From positions 10,322 to 74,321 of the forward strand of contig JAJUGZ010000003.1 of the NCBI GenBank assembly GCA_029265715.1: a DNA stretch of 64,000 bases. The letters run 5' to 3'. The notes beneath the pieces were generated by a model. That model saw only the letters and a list, made by a program, of their open reading frames with translations, had not been told where the DNA came from and searched no databases. Of the stretch, positions 36,828 through 38,143 are shown in pieces (the stretch's first letter is position 1; each line of letters starts with the position of its first letter). Made by a program: the position numbers and the translations under genes. The stretch comes from Bacteroidota bacterium (lineage in GTDB: Bacteria; Bacteroidota; Bacteroidia; Bacteroidales; Prolixibacteraceae).

Positions 36828-36838
36828 AGTTTAATCAT

Positions 36839-36859
36839 GAGTAGCGAGTAACGAGTAAA
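36839..36859 (-). repeat. right arm of four-helix-bundle cassette 2
   Basis: Minus strand TTTACTC GTTACTC GCTACTC. Confidence 0.85.
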
Positions 36860-36882
36860 ATGGGCTCGCGTTCGGTTGTTCG

Positions 36883-37239
36883 CTATTTGTTGTTTATTGA
36901 TCGTTGAAGACCGCTTATCATTTTTTGTATTTCATCCAATTTCTGAGTCAATGATTCGAAATCGGGTTGGCTTACGTAGTTTAGTTCGTGTGCGATGATG
37001 AGTTGAGTCTCGAGTTCAAACGAAGAACCCTTGGCAATATTTAAAAAGTGGATGAAGTCTTCCGGGCTCATTCTTCCAGCACCTTCGGCAATATTTGAAG
37101 GAATAGAAGACGCAGCTCTTCGGATTTGTGATGTCAGTCCGTAGCCTTCTTCCGTTGGAAAGGTCTGAGTGATTTTGTATATCAAGATCACTAATTCAAT
37201 GGCCCTTTGCCAAACTTTCAATTCTTTGAAATTATTCAT
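36883..37239 (-). CDS. four-helix-bundle protein (TIGR02436 / 23S-IVP family), intact
   Basis: MNNFKELKVWQRA, FPTEEGYGLTSQIRRAASSIPSNIAEG, FLNIAKGSSFELETQL; real start ATG 37239. Confidence 0.95.
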   Translation of the reverse strand: MNNFKELKVWQRAIELVILIYKITQTFPTEEGYGLTSQIRRAASSIPSNIAEGAGRMSPEDFIHFLNIAKGSSFELETQLIIAHELNYVSQPDFESLTQKLDEIQKMISGLQRSINNK

Positions 37240-37364
37240 CCGTAAATAATTTGTTTTTAAGTTGTCAGATGGAATAGCCATGATCCGGTTATTATTTTCA
37301 TTATCTGTTGGTGTTTGTGTACATTTTCGGTTTGTATGAACTATGGTTCTTCTGGCTATTTCAT
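37240..37364 (-). repeat. leader element, homologous to 40081-40170
   Basis: 36/42 ungapped identity next to the ATG plus a second conserved block; internal inverted repeat ATGGAATAGCCA / TGGCTATTTCAT. Confidence 0.85.
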
Positions 37365-37382
37365 ATTGATAATATTTTGTGT

Positions 37383-37397
37383 TCACTACTCGCTACT
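37383..37397 (-). repeat. left arm of four-helix-bundle cassette 2
   Basis: Minus strand AGTAGCGAGTAGTGA starting at the ATPase stop codon. Confidence 0.8.
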
Positions 37398-38143
37398 TAT
37401 TCCGTGTTCTTCGCACCACGGGCCAGTTTCAGGAACACCTGCTCCATATTGGCGGCGTTAAATTGTTTTTTTAGGTTCTCGGGAGTGTCGAGGGCATCGA
37501 TGCGGCCATCGACCATGATGGAAACGCGGTCGCAGTACTCGGCTTCGTCCATGTAGTGCGTGGTCACGAAGATGGTTTTCCCTTCGGCCGCAGCTTCGTA
37601 AATGTGGTCCCAAAACTGGCGGCGGGTTATCGGGTCGACACCCCCGGTCGGTTCATCCAAAAAAACAATTTGCGGATTGTGGAACAGGGCGACCGAAAAA
37701 GCCAGTTTTTGTTTCCATCCCAATGGCAATGAGGCAATCAGTTTGTTTCGTTCGTTTTCCAGGTTTAGCTTTTTCAGCATGTCGGCTTCGCGTTTCAACC
37801 GCTCGTTGCGGCGTATTCCGTATATTCCGGTGTAAAAGCGGATGTTTTCAGAAATTGTCAGATCTTCGTAAAGCGAAAATTTCTGGCTCATGTAGCCGAT
37901 ATTTTTTTTGATTAGTTCGGTTTGGGTGTAAACATCGTAGCCCCCAACCGTCAGTTCTCCGGATGTTGGAGCCAATAATCCGCAAAGAATGCGCATGGCG
38001 GTTGTTTTTCCGGCTCCGTTGGCTCCCAGGAACCCGAAAATTTCGCCCTTGTAAACTTCGAAATTCAGGTGGTCGTTGGCCACAAACGAACCGAATTTTT
38101 TGACTAAGTTCCGAACTGTTATAACTGGAATTTGCTGATTCAT
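37397..38143 (-). CDS. ABC ATP-binding protein
   Basis: GANGAGKTT, LPLGWKQKL, LDEPTGGVD, TTHYMDEA. Confidence 0.95.
   Translation of the reverse strand: MNQQIPVITVRNLVKKFGSFVANDHLNFEVYKGEIFGFLGANGAGKTTAMRILCGLLAPTSGELTVGGYDVYTQTELIKKNIGYMSQKFSLYEDLTISENIRFYTGIYGIRRNERLKREADMLKKLNLENERNKLIASLPLGWKQKLAFSVALFHNPQIVFLDEPTGGVDPITRRQFWDHIYEAAAEGKTIFVTTHYMDEAEYCDRVSIMVDGRIDALDTPENLKKQFNAANMEQVFLKLARGAKNTE

Follow-up and report, generated by a model that had tools for sequence, protein, structure and literature searches.

A four-helix-bundle gene bracketed by inverted heptamer arrays resides as an intervening-sequence-type cassette in an operon spacer of a Bacteroidota bacterium

The stretch of DNA analyzed here (the window) comprises 64,000 nucleotides of contig JAJUGZ010000003.1 (positions 10,322 to 74,321, forward strand, assembly GCA_029265715.1) from a Bacteroidota bacterium of the Prolixibacteraceae. 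Within a transporter operon it carries an intact gene of the four-helix-bundle family PF05635/TIGR02436. Our findings reveal that this gene belongs to an intervening sequence (IVS)-type cassette, namely a promoter-less PF05635/TIGR02436 gene in sense orientation, bracketed by inverted polar heptamer arrays and resident in an operon spacer. The upstream array reads (AGWNNYN)n on the sense strand, its complement lies downstream, and this geometry recurs in most relatives across phyla and on viral contigs. What seems new is the presence of IVS elements bearing an open reading frame (ORF) in operon spacers rather than in rRNA, together with an architecture that is a family trait and is undescribed in the literature searched.

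The operon has the order OEP-HlyD-ATPase-ATPase-permease-permease, and the whole gene string lies on the minus strand (Table 1). The cassette forms the spacer between the second ATPase and first permease cistrons and is sense-oriented. The protein encoded by its gene matched PF05635 over the full length of the model (positions 1-106 of 106, 150 bits against a cut-off of 33.8, E=3e-44, Pfam) and scored 145.3 bits against TIGR02436 (cut-off 24) and 153 bits against NF008911 (cut-off 137, both NCBIfam). The closest solved relative was Xcc0516 (PDB 2GSC, E=1.3e-27). The PDB deposits of 2GSC and of another relative, 2RLD, contain 5 chains each, and 2GSC is a five-subunit ring according to the citation of Lin et al. 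2006 in PMC4990558. No terminator was found inside the cassette, and the only candidates for a promoter of its own were weak matches to a sigma-70-like consensus, which is not appropriate for Bacteroidota. An Rfam scan of 36700-37500 returned no rRNA match, its sole hit being a chance one to CRISPR-DR25 (E=0.94). Assignment to an anti-phage defense system was rejected, with no PADLOC family at E<=0.01.

The earlier note, made from the letters of this DNA, had described two arms around the gene that form a 15-nt pairing. Re-reading the sequence confirmed this pairing as claimed, with 13 Watson-Crick and 2 G-U pairs. The positions of the arms were also as described: the left arm begins at the ATPase stop codon, the last A of which is the first base of AGTAGCGAGTAGTGA, and the right arm, TCGTTACTCGCTACT, ends 12 nt before the permease ATG and lies inside a 2.9-unit heptamer array (36839-36858) with a period of 7 (Tandem Repeats Finder). 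Of 3000 shuffles of the two intergenic segments, 6 equalled the perfect 11-nt core and none the G-U-extended helix. The stem is long-range, with a loop of ~540 nt, and it closed both the minimum free energy and the centroid folds of the 601-nt RNA. The closest homologs, 72-74% identical, came from a Mangrovibacterium metagenome-assembled genome and three other public-metagenome assemblies. They occupied exactly the same junction and carried arms of GAGTnnn units, 3-5 per arm. While the window duplex has 15 pairs (~-21 kcal/mol), those of the four orthologous cassettes have 25-38 pairs (-37 to -51 kcal/mol). Closely related strains of the source metagenomes vary in the left arm. Contigs of two anaerobic-digester metagenomes lacked 7 nt corresponding to one left-arm heptamer (CGAGTAG on the sense strand, 37386-37392) as well as 2 nt at 37372. 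This heptamer-deleted variant keeps an 8-nt left arm and a stem of ~8 bp.

Arms of this kind are a property of the family. We examined 80 loci of relatives with 42-60% identity from Bacteroidota, Clostridia, Planctomycetota, Omnitrophota, Proteobacteria, Cyanobacteria and archaea. Each of 86 genes was scored by the strongest inverted repeat that its upstream 250 nt form with its downstream 150 nt, and in the control an upstream flank was combined with a downstream flank from a different locus. A score of at least 12 was reached by 62% of loci and by 3% of mismatched pairs (Mann-Whitney p=1e-28). Typically, tandem heptamers stand upstream of the gene and their reverse complement downstream. The unit is locus-specific (e.g., AGTAGTG, GAGTATT, CAGATGC, TTAGACG or GGACAGT), and arms pair within their own locus, not between heptamer families. 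Autocorrelation at lag 7 was 0.40 in both flanks against a background of 0.29, with a further peak at lag 14, and arrays had a median of 4.6 units and a mode of 4-5. All eight relatives on IMG/VR viral contigs (L181-L188) had heptamer arms, with scores of 14-30, and phage or prophage genomes thus carry the same cassette type. The viral set includes perfect 30-nt arms of the AGTGGAG type. In a strict scan of 1.17 Mb, 16 of 26 inverted heptamer-array pairs enclosed a four-helix gene, and the others were short-loop hairpins. The earlier note had made its reading depend on other family members having inverted arms; such arms occur in most TIGR02436 relatives examined and are no local accident.

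The arrays are strongly polar. On the sense strand, G exceeded C in the upstream arm in 44 loci and C exceeded G in 4 (p=1.5e-9), and AG occurred 188 times against 28 occurrences of CT. Rotation-aligned units gave the consensus A(78%) G(89%) W n n y n in an alignment without a shuffled-unit control, and the polarity claim is based on the AG/CT and G/C counts rather than on this consensus. Some arrays have no AG core, such as those of GGTTTTC and CGTTACA units. The cassette gene was co-directional with both neighbors in 71 of 80 cases, compared with 56% of ordinary gene triples in the same loci (p=5e-10). Geometry was measured in the 61 loci with co-directional neighbors and clear arms, where the median arm length was 32 nt. 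The left arm started a median of 0 nt from the upstream stop codon (interquartile range -4 to 12) and ended a median of 29 nt before the cassette start codon. The right arm started a median of 12 nt after the cassette stop codon and ended a median of 6 nt before the downstream start codon (interquartile range -2 to 17). Because the arms abut the neighboring stop and start, the element takes up the entire spacer, and the stem base sets the upstream stop beside the downstream start, as had been proposed for the window. Sense orientation, polarity, arms touching stop and start and the lack of a terminator tie the element to transcription and translation rather than to DNA alone. The 7-nt period as an insulator that places stop codons in all frames was rejected, with three frames closed in 11 of 53 upstream arms and in 7 of 53 reverse complements. 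Biosynthetic operons are hosts too, as shown by L173-L180, where the cassette separates the argininosuccinate synthase and glutamate 5-kinase genes and extends 8 nt into the downstream gene at its 3' end; in L173 the cassette gene spans 2001-2354.

The ATPase-permease junction was compared across 80 metagenomic loci with permeases 57-77% identical to the window permease. The earlier note had suggested looking for empty sites in orthologous operons, and they were found at ~30 of these 80 junctions. At nine of the empty sites the stop and start codons overlap, mostly as ATGA, and at the others 7-36 nt separate them. A PF05635 cassette occupied the junction in L082, with GAGTAGN units like those of the window, and in L109, L089, L138 and L139/L141, with other units. 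Cassettes also stood at other junctions of the same operon in L084, L089 (three), L090, L096 and L163 (two). Several junctions held 75-85 nt hairpins of inverted heptamer arrays and no gene (L083, L085, L087, L090, L091, L095, L096), and some held longer arrays (L088, L147). Among 4 sequences of the gene-less hairpin group, no double-sided changes indicative of covariation were found. L081 has an MNFKDL... stub between CAGT-type arms, which is suggestive only, while the cassette of L140 is split by a frameshift and that of L141 is truncated relative to L139. Judging from these sequences, gene-less heptamer forms can arise from decayed cassettes.

Other contents of this junction were observed as well. 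In L113 (2764-3001), ~30 direct AAACAGT units stand there with no inverted partner. A single heptamer family can recur within an operon, as in L088, where CAGT-type heptamer hairpins occupy three junctions (801-847, 1887-2099 and 2843-2998). In other clades, an unrelated conserved gene for a 147-150-aa membrane protein occupies the junction (~2550-3000) in L112, L114, L117, L122, L129, L145, L146 and L150, and a gene for a 224-aa HAD-type hydrolase takes the place of the cassette in L125, L127 and L157. In the window itself, two co-directional LolCE/FtsX-type permease genes are separated by a gene-less cluster of heptamer arrays (25018-25200). Its components are, in order, (AGTAGTG)x3, (TCAAAAT)x3, the palindrome GAGACTCGAGTCTC, (CTTGATA)x6 and (ACTCAGGG)x2, and it is probably related to cassette arms, in decayed or gene-less form.

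The four-helix gene is old at its site and under purifying selection. Among orthologs, the nonsynonymous divergence (dN) of the cassette was 0.16-0.21 and that of the adjacent permease 0.16-0.20, with synonymous sites saturated. This equality at saturation argues for a functional protein and long vertical inheritance. Identical proteins found on 24 contigs, and others on 14, always had the same neighbors, and paralogs within one genome shared only 30-55% identity. No recombinase or transposase was found in or beside the cassettes of the window and the orthologous loci. Over long times the sites do turn over, with gain, loss and exchange of the heptamer family in both arms at once. The earlier note had called the cassette a mobile element. 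Mobility is only weakly supported: identical proteins keep to single contexts, the cassette is syntenic in Prolixibacteraceae relatives with saturated synonymous sites, its dN matches the permease value, and no sign of recent transposition was seen. Classification of the cassette as a transposon or as a miniature inverted-repeat transposable element (MITE) was rejected, with one copy in the window, no transposase domain and identical proteins in a single context.

A separate MITE-like dispersed repeat, ATGAA + 120 nt + ATGAA, lies in the leader of the window cassette, and a second copy stands immediately upstream of the HlyD start codon (Table 1). In each copy, the second ATGAA provides the start ATG of the gene that follows, which is the four-helix gene (ATG 37239) for one copy and the HlyD gene for the other. 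In source-type metagenomes the repeat at 37235-37364 reached a depth of ~1200-1650x against ~10x for its flanks (~130-fold), and copies in other flanks appeared in DNA and RNA contigs alike. It contains an internal hairpin, AAATAGCCA...TGGCTATT, and has no Rfam match. The orthologs L082 and L161-L163 do not have it and show ~20-50 nt at that place. In the window the distance from left arm to ATG is 147 nt, mostly MITE-like repeat, and would be 20 nt without it, as in L082 and L161. The gap is thus unusually long because of a later insertion, and the repeat is not part of the ancestral cassette.

Table 1. Positions of the cassette, its arms, the MITE-like repeat and the surrounding operon in the window
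Feature	Position	Strand	Evidence or remark
Four-helix-bundle gene PF05635/TIGR02436/NF008911, 118 aa, intact	36883..37239 (ATG 37239, TAG 36885-36883)	minus	
Left (5') arm AGTAGCGAGTAGTGA	37383..37397	minus	two GAGTAGN-type heptamer units; inverted repeats I2/I7
Right (3') arm TCGTTACTCGCTACT	36840..36854	minus	ends 12 nt before permease ATG 36827
MITE-like dispersed repeat, ATGAA + 120 nt + ATGAA	37235..37364	minus	secondary insertion in cassette leader
Second copy of MITE-like repeat	40170-40076	minus	immediately upstream of HlyD start codon
OEP outer-membrane efflux protein gene	41585-40320	minus	ORF list and Pfam
HlyD-type adaptor gene	40080-39202	minus	ORF list and Pfam
First ATP-binding cassette (ABC) ATPase gene	39170-38181	minus	ORF list and Pfam
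Second ABC ATPase gene, upstream of cassette	38143-37397	minus	Pfam ABC_tran E=5e-29
Stop codon TAA of second ATPase	37399-37397	minus	overlaps left arm
First ABC-2 permease gene, downstream of cassette	36827-35721	minus	Pfam ABC2_membrane_3 E=1.6e-48
Second ABC-2 permease gene	35511-34393	minus	ORF list and Pfam

With a probability of about 0.5, we interpret the arms as functioning at the RNA level, where the cassette would be looped out and the stem cut by RNase III, used for coupling of the flanking cistrons, or both. The arrays would pair in the polycistronic transcript in one of several registers, and with the cassette looped out the operon could tolerate the 570-nt insert. By analogy with the IVS of the Coxiella 23S rRNA, RNase III may cut the stem, releasing the cassette RNA and leaving paired stem remnants on the operon halves. 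Alternatively or in addition, downstream initiation would be tied to upstream termination. The right array, 6-12 nt before the start codon, would cover the permease initiation region until a ribosome at the ATPase stop melts the left array and frees it. Such coupling by the stem would replace the ATGA-type coupling of empty sites. Slippage would alter the unit number, and internal deletion would yield gene-less heptamer hairpins. Metatranscriptome contigs covering 36788-36955 and 37358-37604 span the right and the left arm, respectively. These assembled Logan contigs indicate that read-through RNA exists, subject to the caveat of DNA carry-over.

Several results weigh against this interpretation. 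The earlier note had expected G-U pairs to favor the sense strand, and this bias was absent family-wide. Arm alignments contained 1897 Watson-Crick, 90 G-U and 101 A-C pairs and 262 other mismatches with lenient arms, and 29 G-U against 32 A-C with strict arms. Duplex energies were -74.6 kcal/mol on the sense and -74.0 kcal/mol on the antisense strand (p=0.71), compared with -56.5 kcal/mol for mismatched loci. With neither a G-U excess nor an energy difference between strands, base-pair-level selection on the sense RNA is not visible. Mismatches that are all G-U were confined to the window (2 of 2) and L082 (3 of 3), and in L161 and the window with flanks the more stable duplex lay on the antisense strand. 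Transversions made up most arm mismatches, and the order of unit variants was only weakly mirrored between arms (mean z 0.8). In the GAGT group, the arms of different orthologs paired as well as own partners. This cross-pairing and weak mirroring show that complementarity arises mainly from both arms using the same unit, with several registers possible. A plain stem would not need such strong polarity. The window stem, with only 2 heptamer units, is the shortest and weakest of its ortholog group, and its 15 bp (~8 bp in the strain variant) fall below the usual length of an RNase III substrate.

Some of these observations would also fit arms that act as DNA. They could be terminal inverted repeats, in which arrays of protein-binding sites mark both ends of an element that is or once was mobile, with the RNA stem a by-product. 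The missing G-U bias agrees with this, as do a conserved unit core, GAGT among the orthologs and AG across the family, that is better kept than mirrored pairing, the patchy presence of cassettes with differing heptamer families at one junction, and gene-less, MITE-like derivatives. A mobile element of this kind is hard to reconcile, however, with cassettes that have no recombinase or transposase in or beside them, with identical proteins that never occur in two contexts and genome paralogs of only 30-55% identity, or with long vertical retention under purifying selection. Orientation and polarity, moreover, follow transcription, and we consider a purely DNA-level role rather unlikely. Chance complementarity of the 15 nt in the window deserves practically no credence and is regarded as refuted. 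Despite the shortness of the arm and the absence of one unit from related strains, only 0-6 of 3000 shuffles reached the observed value, four orthologs have longer same-unit arms at the same place, and the arm excess is family-wide. Another origin is that intercistronic hairpins born by slippage, like STRR or GGGAATC arrays, pre-existed and the gene landed in their loops, which would leave the arms target-derived and without a role for the gene. Gene-less hairpins or direct arrays do occur at the same and other junctions (L083, L085, L088, L113 and 25018-25200 of the window), and gene-unlinked heptamer arrays are known from Xanthomonas, cyanobacteria and Beggiatoaceae (PMC4692102, PMC4679880). 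Yet the gene lies within 16 of the 26 inverted array pairs returned by the strict 1.17-Mb scan, same-unit arms travel with it through orthologs, and decayed cassettes (the L081 stub, frameshifted L140 and truncated L141) can yield the gene-less forms, so that we judge this order of events improbable.

The polarity invites a different explanation, in which the protein itself reads the array. In a system resembling the trp RNA-binding attenuation protein (TRAP), the upstream AG-cored array would serve as a putative single-stranded RNA or DNA platform for a pentamer, one unit per subunit, and the downstream array as an antisense competitor. The module would autoregulate or switch the downstream operon genes. 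Avd, a relative of the family, is a nucleic-acid-binding cofactor. The strong polarity and the AG core conserved in otherwise free heptamers are consistent with such binding, and the left array ends a median of 29 nt before the cassette start codon. The modal 4-5 units match the five-subunit ring cited for 2GSC, although they would equally fit a helix of RNase III size. The AG consensus, for its part, came from rotation alignment without a shuffled-unit control, and some arrays (GGTTTTC, CGTTACA) have no AG core. A TRAP-like system is therefore a minor possibility in our view. More speculatively, the arms and the protein may form one ribonucleoprotein module. The pentamer would recognize about five AG-cored heptamers, one for each subunit, and through its binding to the 5' array it would open or close the stem and thereby control RNase III cutting or translational coupling of the operon or rRNA. 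Orphan arrays (STRR, GGGAATC, TAACTGA) would then be gene-less relics or trans-acting sites. We offer this combined scheme as a doubtful one.

With 27,334 representatives after clustering at 50% identity, PF05635/TIGR02436 is a very large family. It has no known function and has so far drawn attention almost exclusively as an oddity of 23S IVSs and a cousin of Avd. Our results place its usual habitat in the spacer between co-transcribed genes, where it has the stereotyped architecture known from the rRNA IVS of Coxiella. Three observations are thereby connected, namely IVSs that carry an ORF, the overabundance of heptanucleotide repeats between bacterial genes, and the multi-copy four-helix genes of Bacteroidota and others. 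In the literature searched, no paper besides that on Coxiella links PF05635 to heptamer arms, and the link may be described beyond that literature.

Among known systems, the ORF-bearing 23S IVSs of Coxiella burnetii and Leptospira, whose ORF encodes S23p, offer the nearest parallel. The Coxiella IVS has a 28-bp terminal inverted-repeat stem around its S23p ORF (Warrier et al., PMC4990558). Depending on the strain, 2-3 GACAGAT heptamers stand just before the start codon, and the RNase III cleavage site lies where the first heptamer repeat begins (PMC4990558). The likeness to 23S IVSs drawn in the earlier note therefore holds: the protein family is the same, complementary termini enclose an S23p ORF, and heptamers stand at the 5' side, as 2 units in the window cassette and 3-5 units in the orthologous ones. 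The unit-number polymorphism of the left arm in related strains also resembles that reported for the Coxiella IVS. Unlike the IVSs, which sit in helix 25 or 45 of the 23S rRNA, the window cassette lies in a protein-coding operon transcript. RNase III excision has been shown for the IVS and would apply to the cassette by analogy, and the Coxiella ORF is decaying, whereas the window gene is under purifying selection.

The relation to Avd of diversity-generating retroelements (DGRs), also raised in the earlier note, is real but distant. The four-helix-bundle fold is homologous (PMC10053308), and the window protein hits both Avd models weakly, below their cut-offs (NF033474, 28.9 bits against 80; PF22296, 29.1 bits against 40), which led us to reject an identity with Avd. 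Membership in a DGR was rejected as well. No reverse transcriptase or template/variable repeat (TR/VR) is adjacent, and the six neighbors are transporter genes (OEP, HlyD, ABC ATPase and ABC-2 permease).

Heptamer arrays have precedents of their own. Intergenic arrays, including convergent pairs, occur in Xanthomonas and Nostoc, with ~70 convergent pairs of GGGAATC arrays in Xanthomonas (PMC4692102), and further arrays in Beggiatoaceae and Bacteroidetes (TAACTGA type) and in cyanobacteria (PMC4679880). The cyanobacterial STRR and the GGGAATC and TAACTGA arrays share with the cassette arms tandem 7-nt intergenic units in variable number, often between co-directional genes, and inverted pairs that can form stem-loops. 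The window arms likewise have period 7 (Tandem Repeats Finder) and differ by a 7-nt indel between strains. The published arrays have no gene link in PMC4692102 and PMC4679880, whereas the cassette arrays bracket a conserved gene and abut stop and start codons. In REP/REPIN-RAYT systems, too, one gene is flanked by inverted short repeats that also occur gene-less as hairpins. The cassette protein, however, is no Y1 transposase, its repeat is locus-specific rather than genome-wide, and its arms are tandem arrays. Finally, in structure-mediated translational coupling and in the RNase III-processed intercistronic stems of operons and phage mRNAs, a stem links or separates cistrons. The stem of the cassette differs from these in being long-range, in being built of heptamer arrays, and in enclosing a whole extra gene.

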